Assembly (NCBI GenBank): GCA_048885865.1
Contig: JBHLLF010000001.1
Span: 32,001 to 96,000, forward strand
Direction: 5' to 3'
Origin: Candidatus Hermodarchaeota archaeon
Lineage (GTDB): Archaea; Asgardarchaeota; Thorarchaeia; Thorarchaeales; Thorarchaeaceae
Length of the DNA stretch: 64,000 nt
This document shows, in pieces, positions 1 through 6,390 of the stretch. The notes under the pieces are model-generated. The model made no database searches, had not been told where the DNA came from, and worked only from the letters and a program-made list of their open reading frames with translations. Position numbers and translations under genes: made by a program. How positions within the stretch are numbered: position 1 is the stretch's first letter; every line of letters starts with the position of its first letter.

Positions 1-864
1 TTCAAGTGCCACACATTCCGAGAGCGGACTAAGGTCTATAGACTCAAGCTGGTTGCCGGCGATATCAAGGGCTCTGAGGTCCACACAACTTGACAGAGGT
101 CTCAAGTCCAATTCATTAATTGCATTCATTGCAAGCTCCAGTCTTCTCAGATTCGTGCAGCGAGAGAGTGGCTCAAGATCTATTGCAGTGATCTCGTTTC
201 CTCCAAGGCGAAGTATTCTGAAATCAGTAGCTTTTGAGAGAGGAAGCAAATCCACGGAACCGATTGCATTCTGGTGCAAGTATAGGAATCTCAGTTTAGT
301 GCAGGCTGAGAGTGGACTTAGATCTATTTCAGTTAGTGAATTATACATGAGATTCAACTGAGTTAGGCTTACACATTTTTCAAGAGGCGTCAAATCCACA
401 GATTTCAGTCCATTTGTTTCAAGCTCTAAGCTGGTAAGATTCACACAACTTGAGAGGGGGGCAAGATCAATATCTGTGATCTTGTTGTTGAAAAGCCTCA
501 ATCTCTCCAATCTGATGCATTTTGATAGAGGATTCAGGTCCAGCGTGGATAATTCGTTTGTTCCTAGATTGAGCTCCGTAAGGTTAATGGCGCCTACCAG
601 AGGCGATAAGTCAACAATCGGAATCTGATTTTTGAAGAGATTGATGACTCTCAATTCCTTCAATTCGCCAAGAGGAGAGAGATCGATTTCCGTCAGTTTA
701 TTGGCACCTAGTAGCAGCTCTTCAATATTCGGGGAGTTCTTTAGCACTTCAAGATCGATGCTGAGAATTCCTTTCTTGCTCAAGTCCAAAACACTGTTCT
801 CAAGATCGAACTCGATTCGTTTCGTGCCATCCTTGTCGGTATATTCAATGTCAATCTCGTACAA
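1..864 (-). CDS. Leucine-rich repeat protein (24-aa repeats), runs off the window end
   Basis: Not in the ORF track because it is open-ended. My translation from TTG at 864 (GGGAGTGA upstream) gives MYEIDIEYTDKDG... followed by about 10 repeats of LxxLxLxxNxI/LxxIDLxPLxxC. Confidence 0.9.
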   Translation of the reverse strand, partial: MYEIDIEYTDKDGTKRIEFDLENSVLDLSKKGILSIDLEVLKNSPNIEELLLGANKLTEIDLSPLGELKELRVINLFKNQIPIVDLSPLVGAINLTELNLGTNELSTLDLNPLSKCIRLERLRLFNNKITDIDLAPLSSCVNLTSLELETNGLKSVDLTPLEKCVSLTQLNLMYNSLTEIDLSPLSACTKLRFLYLHQNAIGSVDLLPLSKATDFRILRLGGNEITAIDLEPLSRCTNLRRLELAMNAINELDLRPLSSCVDLRALDIAGNQLESIDLSPLSECVALE

Positions 865-980
865 CGAATCACTCCCTTAGTCCAGCTATGATTGAGTCGA
901 GGTTACAATTGGTCTTTTCAATGTTGGCCTTATTTCCACTGATTATTCGCTATGATTGAAATCAAAACACTGCTTCAGAG

Positions 981-1063
981 TTGATGTATTAGATGGAACA
1001 TGCTCCGGCCAGAGAACGCTTCGGGAGCTGAGAAGCTTTGAGAAGAATACTCTTGGGTATCTA
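981..1063 (+). pseudogene. Degenerate copy of the dsrE promoter, 5' UTR and first codons
   Basis: 981-1030 aligns ungapped to 3114-3163 at 41/50 nt. It continues as ttgagaagaatactcttgggtat versus the dsrE start ttggagaaaaaaactctcggaat. Confidence 0.75.
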
Positions 1064-1182
1064 GGAACTGCAAAAGAATTCTCTTCTATTTGATAGCGAC
1101 AGGTGTCTTCTATCTGATATAGATGGGTGAATGACAGGTATGTTTCACTCATTGAAGTCCAATCGGGGCTGTTTGTAAAAAT

Positions 1183-1220
1183 CAAAAATCAGGAGGGGTA
1201 GGCCTTCCATCAACCCCTCC
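1183..1220 (-). terminator. Hairpin plus T-run terminator of the 1259-1765 gene
   Basis: ggaggggt...acccctcc inverted repeat followed by TTTTT on the minus strand. Confidence 0.55.
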
Positions 1221-1258
1221 GTGATTTACTCTAGACACTAGTGTTTACTGTTATCGAA

Positions 1259-1765
1259 TTAGTTTATCTGGGTGTATCCAGTGATGGTACCTGTGGACCA
1301 ATCAATGCTACTAAATGTCTTTATCTTTCGTCCTAGAAGGAATGACCAATCATAGGCTCCATCTGGTGTATCAACTATTGTGATACGCCCGTTTATTATG
1401 GGTGTGTCTGTAGCAACAGAGTACGATCCTTTGTGGGTCCCTTCCATATACCCTCCGTCATCCCAAATGATCCACCACTTCCCTGAGAACTGTTGGACTT
1501 TGTAGTCAGGGTAGGGCAAGGGACTCTGTCCTTCGGGTCCCAAAAAGCGGTACGCATCGTCATCATTATCCCAATACACCATCCCATGCTGACCATCTTC
1601 GGCATATACGTTTCCTGTCCATTCAGGGCTACCAGTATACCAAAGATCAGAATACCATCTGTAGACTGAGAATCCTTTATTTGCCGCCACAGGGGTTGCA
1701 GATACCAGAGCCACTAGGAAGATAATACTTAGTAGGCCTACACCCACTCTTTTTGACACGCTCAT
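1259..1765 (-). CDS. Secreted beta-rich hypothetical protein, paralog A
   Basis: Start placed at MSVSK (1765), with GAGGTGA RBS and the same start as paralog B. Signal peptide MSVSKRVGVGLLSIIFLVALVSA; ends QIN. Confidence 0.85.
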   Translation of the reverse strand: MSVSKRVGVGLLSIIFLVALVSATPVAANKGFSVYRWYSDLWYTGSPEWTGNVYAEDGQHGMVYWDNDDDAYRFLGPEGQSPLPYPDYKVQQFSGKWWIIWDDGGYMEGTHKGSYSVATDTPIINGRITIVDTPDGAYDWSFLLGRKIKTFSSIDWSTGTITGYTQIN

Positions 1766-1806
1766 TACGTATTCACCTCTTTCCCTTTGTGCAAATCGCA
1801 CAACAT

Positions 1807-1961
1807 CTCTCCTCTCCTAACTCAGACTCCCCCGAGTTTCTCAGAAATAGGGCATATGCAAGTCTTGCGTTCTCCATTGAGTCAAGGCACAGATGACTTG
1901 ATTGTAATTCAATTGGGTAAGTTTTGGAACTCATTAATGAGGCATAACCAAGCCTGATTAA
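1807..1961 (-). ncRNA. Conserved leader / candidate structured RNA, copy 1
   Basis: About 140/155 nt identical to 2691-2845. No conserved start codon. Several differences keep base pairing. Confidence 0.5.
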
Positions 1962-2101
1962 AAGAGTTAACAAGAAAGAATTAATACCTTTATAATAAGT
2001 TGTTCGGTCGTTCATTACCTATTCTCAAGGGAAACATTGAATGAATCAGCCCCATCAGTTCTCTTAGAACAAGGTTTCCGAGACTCGAAATAGACCGAGT
2101 C

Positions 2102-2132
2102 ATGACCAACTGCGTTTACGTTTTAAATGGCA
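2102..2132 (+). repeat. Second copy of the dsrE promoter segment, at the cassette junction
   Basis: atgaccaactgcgtttacgttttaaatggca versus gtgaccaattgcgttaacgttttaaatagca at 3101-3131. Confidence 0.8.
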
Positions 2133-2198
2133 AAAAATAGGAAAAAGGGTCAGTCAGTGGCCGACCCCTCCATATTCACAATGCTAGTTGGATCTCCT

Positions 2199-2651
2199 TC
2201 AGTTTATCTGAATCGTTGCCTCAGTGAAAAATGGGAACGGGGTTATAATCCCCATTACATGCACATTTCTTCCATTCAAATGTGACCAATCTGGAGAGGT
2301 GAATGTCACCTTTCCATTTAGGACGTATTTTCCACCATCCAAGATATTGCTGTTTGTTTCATAGACGAAAAACCCGTGAGCTGTTCCCTTAATATATCCT
2401 CCATCAATGAAATCGATCCACCATTCTGAAACCATTTTCTGTCCGTTGGATAAGAATACGATCTCCGAACTGAAGATACCAGCGGTTGCATCTTCTCCGA
2501 TGATTTCTCCAAGCCATGTAGCATTACCAACGAACATTGCCGAAATATCCCATCTAATTGGTGTTTTGGCTTCTACAGGCATTGCAGAAACCAGAGCCAC
2601 TAGGAAGATAATACTTAGTAAACCTACACCCACTCTCTTTGACACGCTCAT
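2199..2651 (-). CDS. Secreted beta-rich hypothetical protein, paralog B
   Basis: Identical 23-aa signal peptide to paralog A. Shares WWIxxxDGGYxxGT, NGxxT, DWSxLxGR and the terminal QIN. Confidence 0.85.
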   Translation of the reverse strand: MSVSKRVGVGLLSIIFLVALVSAMPVEAKTPIRWDISAMFVGNATWLGEIIGEDATAGIFSSEIVFLSNGQKMVSEWWIDFIDGGYIKGTAHGFFVYETNSNILDGGKYVLNGKVTFTSPDWSHLNGRNVHVMGIITPFPFFTEATIQIN

Positions 2652-2690
2652 TACGTTTTCACCTCCCTCACTTTGTAAGAATTTCTCATT

Positions 2691-2845
2691 CTCTCCTCTC
2701 CTAACTCAAACTCCCCCGAGTTTCTCAGAAATAGGGCATATGCAGGTCTTGCGTTCTCCCCTGAATCAAGGCATCGATGACTTGATTGTAATTCAAATGG
2801 GTAAGTTATGGAACCTATTAATGAGGCCTAACTACGCCTAATTAA
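2691..2845 (-). ncRNA. Conserved leader / candidate structured RNA, copy 2
   Basis: Near-identical to 1807-1961 and in the same position upstream of the paralog. Confidence 0.5.
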
Positions 2846-3170
2846 TGAAGTTAACCTCCACAATGTTAACAGCAGTGTAATAAGTTGCTTGGTCATTTGG
2901 TCATAATAATAGAGATGGAGAGATTGAATGAATCAGACCTATCAGATCTCTTAGAATGAGGGATACACAAATCTTGTGCTCTATATCGAGTCAAGGAATC
3001 AATGACTTGAATACATTTCAGAGCAGTAATTCCTGAGTTGTTTGCTTGAGGTTTGTATTATGTGTTTTAAGGAATCAAAAAGCCTGAATTAGAGTGATTA
3101 GTGACCAATTGCGTTAACGTTTTAAATAGCACATTCTCCGGCCAGAGAAAGCTTTGGGAGCTGTACAGGC

Positions 3171-3536
3171 TTGGAGAAAAAAACTCTCGGAATTCTACTC
3201 CTGACCTCACCATACACGTATCAGAACAGTCACACATTCTATGACCTTGCTAAAGCCGCCCTTGAGAAGGGCTATGCCGTCAAGGTATTCTTGTTTGTGG
3301 ATGGTGTGAACAATGCGAAACTGGGTCAAGATCCTGACCCTGACATTCCAATGAATGACAAATTTCAAGAACTGGCTGACGCGGGAGCTGAGTTCCAGGC
3401 CTGTGGTCTCTGTACCTCTGCTCGTGGATTTGACCAGAGAGGAACTGATTTCATTGAAGGTGTAGAGGTTTCAGGGCTCACCGAGTTTGCTGAATACATT
3501 GGCGAGGCCGACCGTTTCATCACATTTGGTATGTAG
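3171..3536 (+). CDS. dsrE: DsrE/TusD family sulfurtransferase
   Basis: LTSPY...VFLFVDGV...ACGLCTSARG: DsrE motifs with the active Cys region. First gene of a three-gene operon. Confidence 0.9.
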   Translation: MEKKTLGILLLTSPYTYQNSHTFYDLAKAALEKGYAVKVFLFVDGVNNAKLGQDPDPDIPMNDKFQELADAGAEFQACGLCTSARGFDQRGTDFIEGVEVSGLTEFAEYIGEADRFITFGM

Positions 3537-3547
3537 GAGGAATAGCG

Positions 3548-3898
3548 ATGGAGTTTACAGAACGCAAAGTACTCATACTCGTGAAGAGCCGCCCCTACGG
3601 TGAGATTATCAACTTTGAGGGTTGGAGAGCAGCAGTGGGGATGTTCGGGATGGACCATGAGCCGTTGCTCTTGTTTATGGGTGATGGAGTCTTCTCCCTT
3701 TTGAAGTCCGCTGATGTGATGCCTTTCCGGATGTTCAAAGCAACCTACCTTGATTTCGACGGGAGAATCCTTGCCAGTAGAAAGTCGCTTGAAGAGCGAA
3801 ACATCAGTGCAGAGGAGATCTTTGAAGAGGTCGAGCTGGCCGATGAGTCAATGATTGCAGAAGCATTGACAGAAAACGAGGTCATCATTACATTCTGA
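3548..3898 (+). CDS. dsrF: DsrF/TusC family protein
   Basis: SRPYG...EG...LLFMGDGVFSL...SLEERNI...VIITF; follows dsrE. Confidence 0.85.
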   Translation: MEFTERKVLILVKSRPYGEIINFEGWRAAVGMFGMDHEPLLLFMGDGVFSLLKSADVMPFRMFKATYLDFDGRILASRKSLEERNISAEEIFEEVELADESMIAEALTENEVIITF

Positions 3899-3909
3899 GG
3901 TGGCTATGG

Positions 3910-4209
3910 TTGAAGTTTCTAATCTGGATTACAAGTGATTGTCCTGACATTAGTGAGGTAGTAGATGCTCTGAAAGCTGGTGGACATGAGATTGGAATTC
4001 TAGTAGCTCAGGATGGGGTTTATAGCATAGATAAAGGCTGTGCCACTTCTGGCGATATCAAGGGACTAGGAGTCCAAGTGTTTGCAATCAGGCATCATGT
4101 TGAAGAGCGAGGTCTGAATGAGCGTCTAGCAATTGATGCTAAGATGGTCGAATATGATGGTGCAGTCGACCTCATTATGGAGCAGTATGATAAAGTAATC
4201 TCACTGTGA
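3910..4209 (+). CDS. dsrH: DsrH/TusB family protein
   Basis: LVAQDGVY...VEERGL...EYDGAVDLI...DKVISL; third gene of the operon. Confidence 0.85.
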   Translation: MKFLIWITSDCPDISEVVDALKAGGHEIGILVAQDGVYSIDKGCATSGDIKGLGVQVFAIRHHVEERGLNERLAIDAKMVEYDGAVDLIMEQYDKVISL

Positions 4210-4329
4210 GCTAGTCATGCTAGCTCCCCTCTTTCTTTCTAGTTAATATTATCATAATTGGTCATTTTCAAGCCCTTCGCAAACGTTGAATAAGGAATGA
4301 GACAATAGCAAAAACCTAGGTGCTCACTT

Positions 4330-4629
4330 ATGGCGTGGGAAAAACATTCAAAGAAGATTACAGAACTCAAAGAATCCAATACTCAGATTGATATGAAGGT
4401 CAGAGAACGCCTTGAAGAGATGATTGGCAAAGTCGCTGACCAAGACGTAGCTGTGAGTTTAGGATTCTTGAAAGACTATCTACATCTTCGAAAAGAAGAT
4501 GATGATGCGATTGATGAGCTCAAGTTTCACGTGAATCTAATGGACGAAATCCGTTACAGTGTAATTGCGGATGATAATGATCAGTCCATATACATCTACT
4601 TCACAAAAGAAAAGGAAGACAAGGACTGA
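4330..4629 (+). CDS. Acidic hypothetical protein
   Basis: 99-aa ORF with AGGTG RBS, flanked by terminator-like hairpins. Confidence 0.7.
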   Translation: MAWEKHSKKITELKESNTQIDMKVRERLEEMIGKVADQDVAVSLGFLKDYLHLRKEDDDAIDELKFHVNLMDEIRYSVIADDNDQSIYIYFTKEKEDKD

Positions 4630-4703
4630 TATACCCTCAATCCAAGAAGAAAGTGCATTGGAGAGAACTTGAGCTAATCCTGAGTTCTCTCCGCATGTTG
4701 GTT

Positions 4704-5075
4704 TTAAAAGGTCATTACTCTAGAGTGCTTCAGTGTATCATCAATCATGGTCGCTGCACCAGCGATCTCAATTCTCGGATCCCTGAGCTGGTCTTGAGTG
4801 ATACCTCTGAACTCGACAGAGTTTGAGCACACCTGTATTTTGCCACCTGATTCAAGAAACGCATCAATCAAGTCTGGAAGTGGTGGGAAACCAGGTGCCT
4901 TTACTTTCTCCGCTGCGCCTTTCTTCATCAGATATACTGCATCCATCATCAGAAAGATATTGGTTTCAATATCCTGAGCTTGAGCAGTGGTGCCTGTCAC
5001 AAATGGGCCATAGCATCTCTCTGCTGCCTCTGGGCCCCATTGACCGATAATGTATAGTTTTTCTGCTTCTGCCAA
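4704..5075 (-). CDS. Second DsrE-family (peroxiredoxin-like/DsrE2-type) protein
   Basis: ERCYGPF...IFLMMDAVYL...IQVCSNS...GAATMI...VMTF. Confidence 0.85.
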   Translation of the reverse strand: MAEAEKLYIIGQWGPEAAERCYGPFVTGTTAQAQDIETNIFLMMDAVYLMKKGAAEKVKAPGFPPLPDLIDAFLESGGKIQVCSNSVEFRGITQDQLRDPRIEIAGAATMIDDTLKHSRVMTF

Positions 5076-5090
5076 TTTCCTTCATCTCCA

Positions 5091-5486
5091 TTATAGAACT
5101 ATTAGTTCAGCGTAGTACAAGACCATTGCAAGCGCTAGGAAAGTACTCACTATCAGGTTGGTGATGTGTGAGCTGTGAATTGGTCCGCCTTGCATCGTCT
5201 TCATCAGCACAGGCACTGCCTGAATGAACTCCAGCAGGAATGCTAGAGCAAAGAAGACGAGGTCAATCCCTAGTAGTAGTTGCACCAGATCCATGAATCC
5301 CAATGAGAACGTTGGCGCCACAATCCCCACAATCAAAGTGATGAGGCTGACCAGCATTCCCAACATGAGCATCATGACCTGGGGCATCAAGACAAATCCC
5401 ATTCTCCTAGCCGCCATGAATCCACTGAACATCGTGGCGAAACCCATTGCGAACAGGACGAATAGTAGTAGTTGGAAAACTGCCAT
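5091..5486 (-). CDS. Four-TM membrane protein, co-oriented with the DsrE-like gene
   Basis: Four hydrophobic segments; GGTGA RBS; 15-bp gap to the next gene. Confidence 0.75.
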   Translation of the reverse strand: MAVFQLLLFVLFAMGFATMFSGFMAARRMGFVLMPQVMMLMLGMLVSLITLIVGIVAPTFSLGFMDLVQLLLGIDLVFFALAFLLEFIQAVPVLMKTMQGGPIHSSHITNLIVSTFLALAMVLYYAELIVL

Positions 5487-5561
5487 TTTGGTTCACCCAA
5501 GTGATTGAGGCGCAAAAATAATCCATTGATAAGGGTGTCGGAAATGGAACAAAAAATTGGC

Positions 5562-5671
5562 ATCGGGTGTGCGAAAACACACAATCGATAGTTAATAATC
5601 GTTAATCGAGTGTGCGAAAATACACAATCATCAATTAAGAATCGTTAATCGGGTGTGTAAAATCGCACATC
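5562..5671. promoter_or_regulatory. 43-bp tandem repeat (about 2.5 copies) carrying GTGTG-N6-CACAC palindromes
   Basis: Units start at 5562, 5605 and 5648. Cores are gtgtgcgaaaacacac, gtgtgcgaaaatacac and gtgtgtaaaatcgcac, with TTAA-N6-TTAA between them. Confidence 0.75.
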
Positions 5672-5722
5672 TGTGTATCGCAATCCTTTAAACTGCAACG
5701 CAACAGAGCCGGGCAGTAGGTT

Positions 5723-5965
5723 TTGACTATGACCCACGACGTAGCCCGAACATTCGATGCCTCAGGTATGAGGTGCCCAATGCCAATCCTCAAGACGAAG
5801 AAAGAGATCGGCCAAGTTGAAATCGGTCAGATTCTCCAAGTAATCGCGACTGACATCGGAACTAAGAAGGACTTCCCTGCATTTGCCGAGAGAACCGGTC
5901 ATGAGATAGTTGAACTTGTTGAAGAAAGCGACAGACTCGTTTGGTACATTAGGCGTAACAAGTGA
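5723..5965 (+). CDS. tusA: TusA/SirA sulfur carrier
   Basis: FDASGMRCPMPILKTKK (CPxP motif) and IATD. Confidence 0.92.
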   Translation: MTMTHDVARTFDASGMRCPMPILKTKKEIGQVEIGQILQVIATDIGTKKDFPAFAERTGHEIVELVEESDRLVWYIRRNK

Positions 5966-5982
5966 TGTTTTTTCTAGGAAGG

Positions 5983-6390
5983 CTATGCCTTCTTTCCTGG
6001 GACGACTAGGACTTGTCCCAGCATATCTCCTTTCATGACAGAGGCCTTCAGTTTGGATTGAAACATTGCCATGTTTGCGACTCTTTCTTCATCATACGGT
6101 TTGTATTCGAGAGCCCCAATACAAGATATGTGGCCCATTCCATTCGCACCATAAAATGATTGAAGGACCATTCCATATGCTGGAATGTCAATTGGTCTTA
6201 TTGGGACTATCCGTGTTTCACCTTCTGCAAATGGGACTTTCTCATTTGCCACGACTGGTGTCAGCCTCGCTTTATCCCATTGGAGCGCGATTTCAATTTC
6301 ATTAAGTCCATCCACTGCAGACCTGACCCTATCCATCCCCATCTCTGCTAAGTCTTGTCTACAACTTATGACATAGATCTTCTCTGACAA
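5983..6390 (-). CDS. DUF22-like archaeal protein
   Basis: IVPIRPIDIP...GH...VMKGDMLGQV resembles DUF22. Confidence 0.6.
   Translation of the reverse strand: MSEKIYVISCRQDLAEMGMDRVRSAVDGLNEIEIALQWDKARLTPVVANEKVPFAEGETRIVPIRPIDIPAYGMVLQSFYGANGMGHISCIGALEYKPYDEERVANMAMFQSKLKASVMKGDMLGQVLVVPGKKA

Follow-up and report, generated by a model that had tools for sequence, protein, structure and literature searches.

The 5' untranslated region (UTR) of the Methanosarcina S-layer gene slmA1 is 154 nucleotides (nt) long, has a mapped transcription start and a conserved TATA box, and is >91% conserved between species; the secondary structures proposed for it are putative only, and the UTR has no known role (PMC3361143). 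To judge by layout, this UTR is probably the closest documented analogue of the element described here, a non-coding leader that occurs in two intact copies on the minus strand of a 64,000-nt stretch of DNA (the window) from a Thorarchaeia genome. In both systems an archaeal surface-protein gene is preceded by a promoter box and by more than 100 nt of non-coding leader that runs to a Shine-Dalgarno (SD) sequence and a start codon. The transcription start that was mapped in Methanosarcina is predicted from a motif in Thorarchaeia. Moreover, the slmA1 UTR belongs to one orthologous gene, whereas the Thorarchaeia leader is multi-copy and mosaic and is found before several unrelated surface genes. 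A literature search returned no full-text match on leaders or transcription starts of Asgard archaea or Thorarchaeota. To our knowledge, gene regulation is almost unexplored in the Asgard archaea, most of which are uncultured.

Two bacterial systems also invite comparison. The leaders of E. coli ompA and of the slpA genes of Lactobacillus and Thermus are stabilising 5' UTRs of envelope-protein mRNAs. The Thorarchaeia leader resembles them in being long, in its single-stranded segments, in a hairpin located just upstream of the SD and in its association with a strongly expressed type of envelope protein. However, those leaders need a stable hairpin at the extreme 5' end, none of which is conserved across the Thorarchaeia family, and the decay machinery differs in archaea. 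The vsp/vlp genes of Mycoplasma are variable surface genes with a conserved 5' UTR and signal peptide and variable mature parts. The window cassettes are likewise in tandem, with 92-93% identity in leader and signal peptide, 51% in the mature parts and signs of recombination. Unlike in vsp/vlp, the neighbourhood showed no repeat tract, invertible promoter or site-specific recombinase that could serve as a phase-variation device, and the dispersed Thorarchaeia copies share the leader only. The element also occupies the place of the cis-regulatory leaders and riboswitches collected in Rfam, directly before the ribosome-binding site in a 5' UTR, but unlike riboswitches it lacks a conserved fold of several helices, a thermodynamic signal and a set of ligand-related genes. 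The leader is absent from Rfam and matches in kind the known conserved leaders of surface-protein genes.

Anatomy and distribution of the leader

We propose that the element is a shared, mostly unstructured regulatory 5' UTR for a few genes of cell-surface or secreted proteins within one family of Thorarchaeia, and put the probability of this reading at roughly 0.55. Transcription would start about 25 nt after a TATA box of the CTTAATA type (ACTTAATA), as predicted from the motif. The leader RNA, mostly single-stranded, would then present a near-invariant motif, GGAGAACGCAAG, a pyrimidine tract, a small hairpin (P4) and, at a fixed distance, a long purine-rich SD. It would act post-transcriptionally, as a common handle for translation efficiency, for mRNA stability or for a trans-acting factor (a protein or a small RNA), and the surface-protein genes would thereby be expressed strongly and jointly. 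The promoter-plus-leader module is probably spread and homogenised by recombination, which explains why the two window leaders are far more alike than the genes behind them.

The sequence-only reading of the window had noted that positions 1807-1961 and 2691-2845 differ at about 15 of 155 nt, and a segment alignment gives exactly 15 mismatches and 0 gaps. With a repeat finder the pair grows to 1806-1971 and 2690-2855 (89% identity), and copy 2 was matched at E = 7e-58 in a BLAST search of the whole 3.58-Mb assembly. According to the family alignments (A3-A6), copy 1 (W1) spans 1806..1971 (-), from the predicted transcription start at ~1970 to the first start codon, and its family-wide part is 1806-1930 (-). 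Copy 2 (W2) spans 2690..2855 (-), with the family core at 2690-2814. Both are upstream of paralogous secreted-protein genes (1259-1765 and 2199-2651).

Searches with BLAST, nhmmer and covariance models assembled a family of 16 intact and two decayed copies. It is present in nine of 87 Thorarchaeia genomes, with further copies on metagenome contigs; the absences are soft, since most of the 87 genomes are incomplete. A genome that carries the family has one to four intact copies. The source genome (G000) has four in all, as two additional, diverged copies are located on its contigs C14 and C7, and the other carriers are six further genomes of the same genus and two of a second genus. A covariance-model search of the whole class revealed no families beyond these two genera. 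A pattern scan of metagenomes gave 77 hits that were mostly unrelated DNA; the true members among them are three new copies on two contigs (two on L043, one on L098) and the contigs L076/L090, which are identical to the locus of genome G013. The only pattern hit in IMG/VR was a chance match, and a viral origin was discarded. All copies have the same orientation relative to the downstream start codon, and, save for the decayed copies, the element always has an SD and a start codon next to it.

On L043 two leaders (689-816 (-) and 1014-1140 (+)) are placed back to back, about 200 nt apart, before divergent genes that encode different signal-peptide proteins. Locus L130 (G004:C1:1269291-1269331) is a probable further member, with a typical 5' end (ACTTAATACAAACC...CTTACCCCTCTGAATTGC); the remainder reads N and the locus was not used. 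On contig C24 of G014 (locus L018), the leader promoter adjoins, by eye, an apparent divergent tRNA gene, of which the reverse complement of the T-arm and acceptor end is seen at the 3' end of the locus. Methanosarcina slmA1 was likewise reported to adjoin a tRNA gene (PMC3361143).

The same order of features is found in all intact copies: box, conserved core with a variable 5' half, GGAGAACGCAAG, pyrimidine tract, P4, SD and start codon. The box has the form GAAA(A/G)N-CTTAA(T/C)A, and the core begins ~25-30 nt after it. This box is taken to be a TFB-recognition element (BRE) and TATA box because boxes of the same kind precede the tRNA genes of the source genome: 19 of these genes have a purine-rich, BRE-like stretch and a CYTTAAWA or CTTTTAWA box (CCTTAATACCC, CCTTAAGTCC, CTTTTATA and others), placed some 33 nt ahead of the mature 5' end. 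The TATA-like ttataaa that had been reported upstream of copy 1 is indeed there, as ACTTATTATAAA on the minus strand at 1989..2000, and matches the tRNA-gene boxes; the box of cassette 2 is ACTTATTACAC at 2875..2885 (-). In the window lineage (W1, W2 and their ortholog G010a in genome G010) decay of the ancestral box is accompanied by a similar box 45 nt further upstream. The leader is therefore ~165 nt long in the two window copies, which add an upstream open reading frame (uORF) of 39-42 nt, and ~115 nt long in the family. The strong identity between W1 and W2 starts at ~1971, about 25 nt after the box.

Within the leader, the motif GGAGAACGCAAG (1864..1875 (-)) occupies near-invariant or invariant columns of alignments A4 and A5 and, in each of the 15 copies measured, precedes the SD by 55-60 nt. 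In the source genome it is found in the family's sequence context only in the four intact copies. The candidate hairpin P4 (UCUGAG-AAA-CUCGGG), identified from covariation and RNAalifold, is located at 1831..1845 (-). The leader is closed by a purine-rich SD, AGGAGAGGAGAG at 1807..1818 (-), which is kept in all intact copies with the family form AGGAG(A)GGAGAGA; it was assigned from sequence, and the 3' end of the 16S rRNA is absent from the assembly. The corresponding positions in W2 are 2748-2759 for the motif, 2715-2729 for P4 and 2691-2702 for the SD, all on the minus strand. The start codon follows the SD after 0-8 nt and is TTG in eight copies, and otherwise ATG or GTG.

A decayed third copy (W3) is found at about 2930..3039 (-) (nhmmer E = 9e-8; 71% identity over the best 66 nt), with neither an SD nor a gene behind it. 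Its motif is mutated at 4 of 12 positions. Genome G010 has an equivalent decayed copy (G010b), upstream of its cassette.

The element is non-coding. None of the six frames is free of stops across all family copies, most frames of most copies contain stops, and the indels in the family measure 1, 2, 5 and 8 nt, i.e., they are not multiples of three. The small open reading frame (ORF) of copy 1, 80 codons at 1773-2015 (-), is present in that copy only, in agreement with the earlier remark that its ATG is not kept in copy 2, and a small-protein gene was rejected as an explanation. A tiny uORF after the motif (AUG CCC UAU UUC UGA) was also dropped, as its AUG is missing from several copies.

Secondary structure of the leader

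The sequence-only reading had presented the element as a candidate novel structured RNA or riboswitch, and this is the part that did not hold up: beyond a weak hairpin, neither fold, nor covariation, nor stability supports it. A cmscan of window positions 1-6000 against Rfam 15 (4227 families, E <= 10) gave no hit in the element and, elsewhere, only four snoRNA hits at chance level, in line with the earlier remark that no known riboswitch was recognised. The minimum free energies (MFE) of eight copies, compared with dinucleotide shuffles, gave z-scores of -0.88 to +1.51, i.e., no excess stability. For a first alignment with nine close and two decayed copies (11 rows), RNAalifold predicted seven pairs (-2.35 kcal/mol); once the C14 and C7 copies replaced the decayed rows, the 11 rows gave 0 pairs, and 20 rows again gave 0. 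No column pair had a mean pairing probability above 0.3.

The helices that had been listed are complementary in both window copies; most of them are not kept in the other 14 members. On the family alignment 75.3% of their cells are paired, against 72.7% in column shuffles, and in covariation 95 of 500 shuffles scored at least as high. Two of them, AGGC/GCCU and GAGUU/AACUU, are located in a lineage-specific 5' extension that aligns to the promoter in other members. Long-range CCCC/GGGG, P1-type and GCA/UGC helices were rejected as well (69% against 66% in shuffles on a MAFFT alignment), and RNAalifold did not recover them. A K-turn or box C/D reading of GGAGAAC...GGGGGAG was dropped by eye, as its flanking stems are unpaired.

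P4, a 6-bp hairpin just 5' of the SD, was not among the pairs listed earlier and fares better. In the 16 intact copies 83 of 96 cells are paired, compared with 77.8 +/- 2.2% when the 3' strands are permuted among the sequences; the observed value was reached in 0 of 2000 permutations, a count that is uncorrected for relatedness. The inner pairs exchange GC, GU, AU and UA, as in CUUAGA/UCUAGG (G007) and UCUGUG/CAUAGG (G082). P4 is the sole helix that RNAalifold returned for the 16 curated members (-2.47 kcal/mol), and in the model-guided alignment it is anchored by conserved flanks without extra gaps. The hairpin is therefore probably real, and every other helix is unsupported. The sequence-only reading had named a lack of covariation among homologs as an argument against itself; P4 does show compensatory changes, while the helices that it had listed show no excess. 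Many of the P4 pairs are U-G, a combination that would count as a mismatch in a palindrome of DNA, and likewise on the antisense strand. This mildly favours a role at the RNA level, and therefore transcription from the upstream box.

Selection, recombination and rival readings

The window pair is indeed more conserved in the leader than in the genes, as had been claimed, with 93% identity in the leader core, 92% in the signal-peptide codons (nucleotide level) and 51% in the mature part. However, this near-identity looks largely like the outcome of recombination. The segments of the two cassettes conflict in their identity to G010a: W1 is close to it in the leader core (92%) and the uORF (95%) and distant in the mature part (52%), whereas W2 has 89% in the leader core, 56% in the uORF and 93% in the mature part. 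The window cassettes are thus mosaics. At longer evolutionary range, constraint on the leader is indicated. At orthologous loci of the two genera (G007/G085) the leader has 78% identity, compared with 58% at four-fold degenerate sites; the motif, the spacing and the SD are kept before unrelated genes; and the gene-less W3 has decayed. Recent gene conversion, which the sequence-only reading had named as a possible full explanation of the identity, accounts for part of it in the window pair, as seen from the mosaic pattern against G010 and the near-neutral divergence of the leader between the close species.

Several observations weigh against the proposed shared 5' UTR. The transcription start is predicted from the motif only, and the real promoter may be another pyrimidine box of TATA-like sequence (CCTTATTCT or CCCTATTTCT), which precedes the start codon by about 43 nt, in which case most of the leader would be upstream DNA. 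The mosaic leaders, which include the L043a copy with its G014-like 5' half and W1-like 3' half, imply that the similarity is partly due to recombination or transfer and not to selection. Between the close species G000 and G010 (W2/G010a) the leader has 90% identity and the four-fold degenerate sites have 92%. P4 is weak (local MFE 0 to -5.1 kcal/mol, mean z -0.77) and is mismatched in eight of the 16 copies, four of which have two mismatches, with statistics that ignore relatedness. Finally, the family is rare and patchy among genomes that are mostly incomplete.

The internal box is the starting point of two rival readings. The element may function as DNA, with transcription-factor sites around an internal promoter and a short mRNA leader that carries the SD; this is unlikely, but is the strongest of the rivals. 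The layout would place GGAGAACGCAAG some 15-25 bp ahead of a TATA box of the CCTTATTCT type, with inverted repeats, e.g., CTATT-N8-AATAG, further upstream. The pyrimidine box does resemble the CYTTWWWW boxes of the genome's tRNA genes, its TT columns show little or no variation, and its distance from the start codon fits a transcription start ~15 nt before the ATG or TTG. Near-perfect palindromes are also found near the 5' end of several diverged copies, and the RNA as a whole folds no better than expected at random. Yet such a promoter would leave without a role the well-formed BRE/TATA at a fixed upstream distance, which is present in the window lineage despite the decay of the ancestral box. 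The sequence upstream of the internal box is GC-rich and not A-rich, unlike a BRE; ~110 nt of co-linear conservation with fixed SD spacing exceeds what a few operator sites need; and P4, which overlaps the internal box, varies compensatorily with G-U pairs, which points to RNA. If both boxes were promoters (they are ~85-90 bp apart), the 5' two thirds of the element, from the upstream box to the T-rich tract, could be a separate small RNA and the surface gene would have its own promoter. Oligo-T is an archaeal termination signal, three copies (G013, L043b and G016) have a tract as long as T5-T7, and what the decayed W3 and G010b retain is the 5' 90 nt, not the SD. However, in the majority of copies, the two window copies among them, the tract has just 2-3 T; W3 without the invariant motif looks dead rather than retained; and the element is always beside an SD and a start codon when the decayed copies are excepted, so that a separate small RNA seems very improbable.

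Of the readings that start from the RNA or from the history of the locus, a riboswitch, or another structured RNA that senses a ligand or temperature and opens or hides the SD, is one for which we see hardly any room. A leader that ends in an SD is a fitting place for it, instead of forming P4 the RNA could pair its SD with the pyrimidine tract and a CCCCUCU segment, and pairing exceeds that of all shuffles on the model-fitted alignment. That alignment is biased towards structure by construction and gives the better pairing figures; the sequence alignments yielded no RNAalifold pairs, P4 alone was returned for the curated members, and the z-scores, the pairing probabilities, the Rfam search and the controls for the listed helices all argue against such a fold. 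Nor do the downstream genes form a metabolic or transport pathway for which a ligand would be obvious; their products are structural surface proteins. Of the earlier idea of a cis-regulatory RNA in an archaeal 5' UTR, what stands is a plausible non-coding, strand-specific leader between box and SD with a family of homologs; the riboswitch fold does not. The leader might instead have no function of its own and be a by-product of recent partial duplication, of gene conversion of the 5' ends of surface genes and of cassette transfer between genomes. The mosaic identity of W1, W2 and G010a, the equality of leader and synonymous divergence between G000 and G010, the chimeric dispersed leader L043a and the patchy taxonomic distribution would all be expected from such a history. 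We nevertheless regard it as improbable, since the motif, the spacing and the SD are the same before non-homologous genes on different contigs in two genera, cross-genus orthologs retain 78% identity in the leader against 58% at four-fold sites, and the gene-less copy has decayed at exactly the positions that are otherwise invariant.

If the element is a shared 5' UTR, it predicts for these archaea a promoter consensus with a CTTAATA-type box in common with tRNA genes, long 5' UTRs with a strong SD and TTG starts, and a small set of co-regulated envelope proteins. The tRNA-derived box is also a usable promoter consensus for the source Thorarchaeon. A more far-reaching form of the proposal, which we offer as a speculation, is an Asgard-specific RNA regulon: a portable promoter-plus-5'-UTR cassette, moved between surface-protein genes by recombination, in which GGAGAACGCAAG and P4 are read by a dedicated protein or small RNA. 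If this were true, the cassette would travel with the signal peptide in the window array, and the cell could swap its envelope proteins under one post-transcriptional control. As for method, the near-identity of neighbouring non-coding copies is weak evidence of RNA structure where cassettes recombine.

Genes and remnants around the window copies

Each window leader is followed by a uORF. uORF 1 (MLCDLHKGKEVNT, then a stop) is located at 1765..1806 (-), and its TAA stop overlaps the main ATG as TAATG; uORF 2 (MRNSYKVREVKT, then a stop; 2651..2689 (-)) likewise ends in TAATG, as does the uORF of G010a. They comprise 13 (W1), 12 (W2) and 13 (G010a) codons, and uORF 2 has 56-61% identity to the other two (61% to uORF 1). 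With an SD of their own and a stop that overlaps the main start, the window-lineage uORFs have the features of a coupled uORF. Ribosomes loaded at the leader SD would translate the uORF and re-initiate at TAATG.

Gene 1 (1259..1765 (-)) encodes a secreted protein of 168 residues and has its own GAGGTGA SD at 1773-1779; gene 2 (2199..2651 (-)) encodes a secreted paralog of 150 residues. Their first ~25 residues, the signal peptide, are almost identical and the mature parts are diverged. Neither protein belongs to a Pfam or NCBIfam family, and leads from PDB and Atlas were at chance level only. Throughout the family, the downstream proteins begin with a charged and then hydrophobic N-terminus that resembles a signal peptide or membrane anchor, followed by mature domains of the Beta_helix/NosD, Laminin_G_3 (LamG), SBP_bac_5 or fn3-like type, or by no known family. 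The dispersed copies have the leader in common and not the signal peptide.

A GTG at 1801 (-), five nt after the leader SD and in frame with gene 1, was considered as an alternative start that would add 12 residues. It is found in copy 1 only and is probably unused: the frame is closed by a stop codon in G010a, and in W2 the stretch from the upstream in-frame stop to the ATG contains no start codon.

Both secreted-protein cassettes are bordered by recurring pieces of the dsrE promoter region (980-1030, 2087-2132 and 3086-3163), among them the CGTTAACG palindrome beside TTTTAAATA and the first transcribed bases. Because these pieces recur at the borders, it is suggested that the cassette array arose via duplication or recombination at the dsrE promoter. 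A remnant of a W3-type leader was also found upstream of the cassette 1 promoter (2030-2087); it consists of the 3' end only (TTCTAAGAGAACTGATGGGGCTGATTCATTCAATG), with an internal deletion relative to 2917-3060. Downstream of cassette 1, the gene at 1-864 (-) appears, by its repeat pattern only, to encode a leucine-rich-repeat-like protein, and its DNA has a strict repeat period of 144 nt (repeat families D5 and D8).

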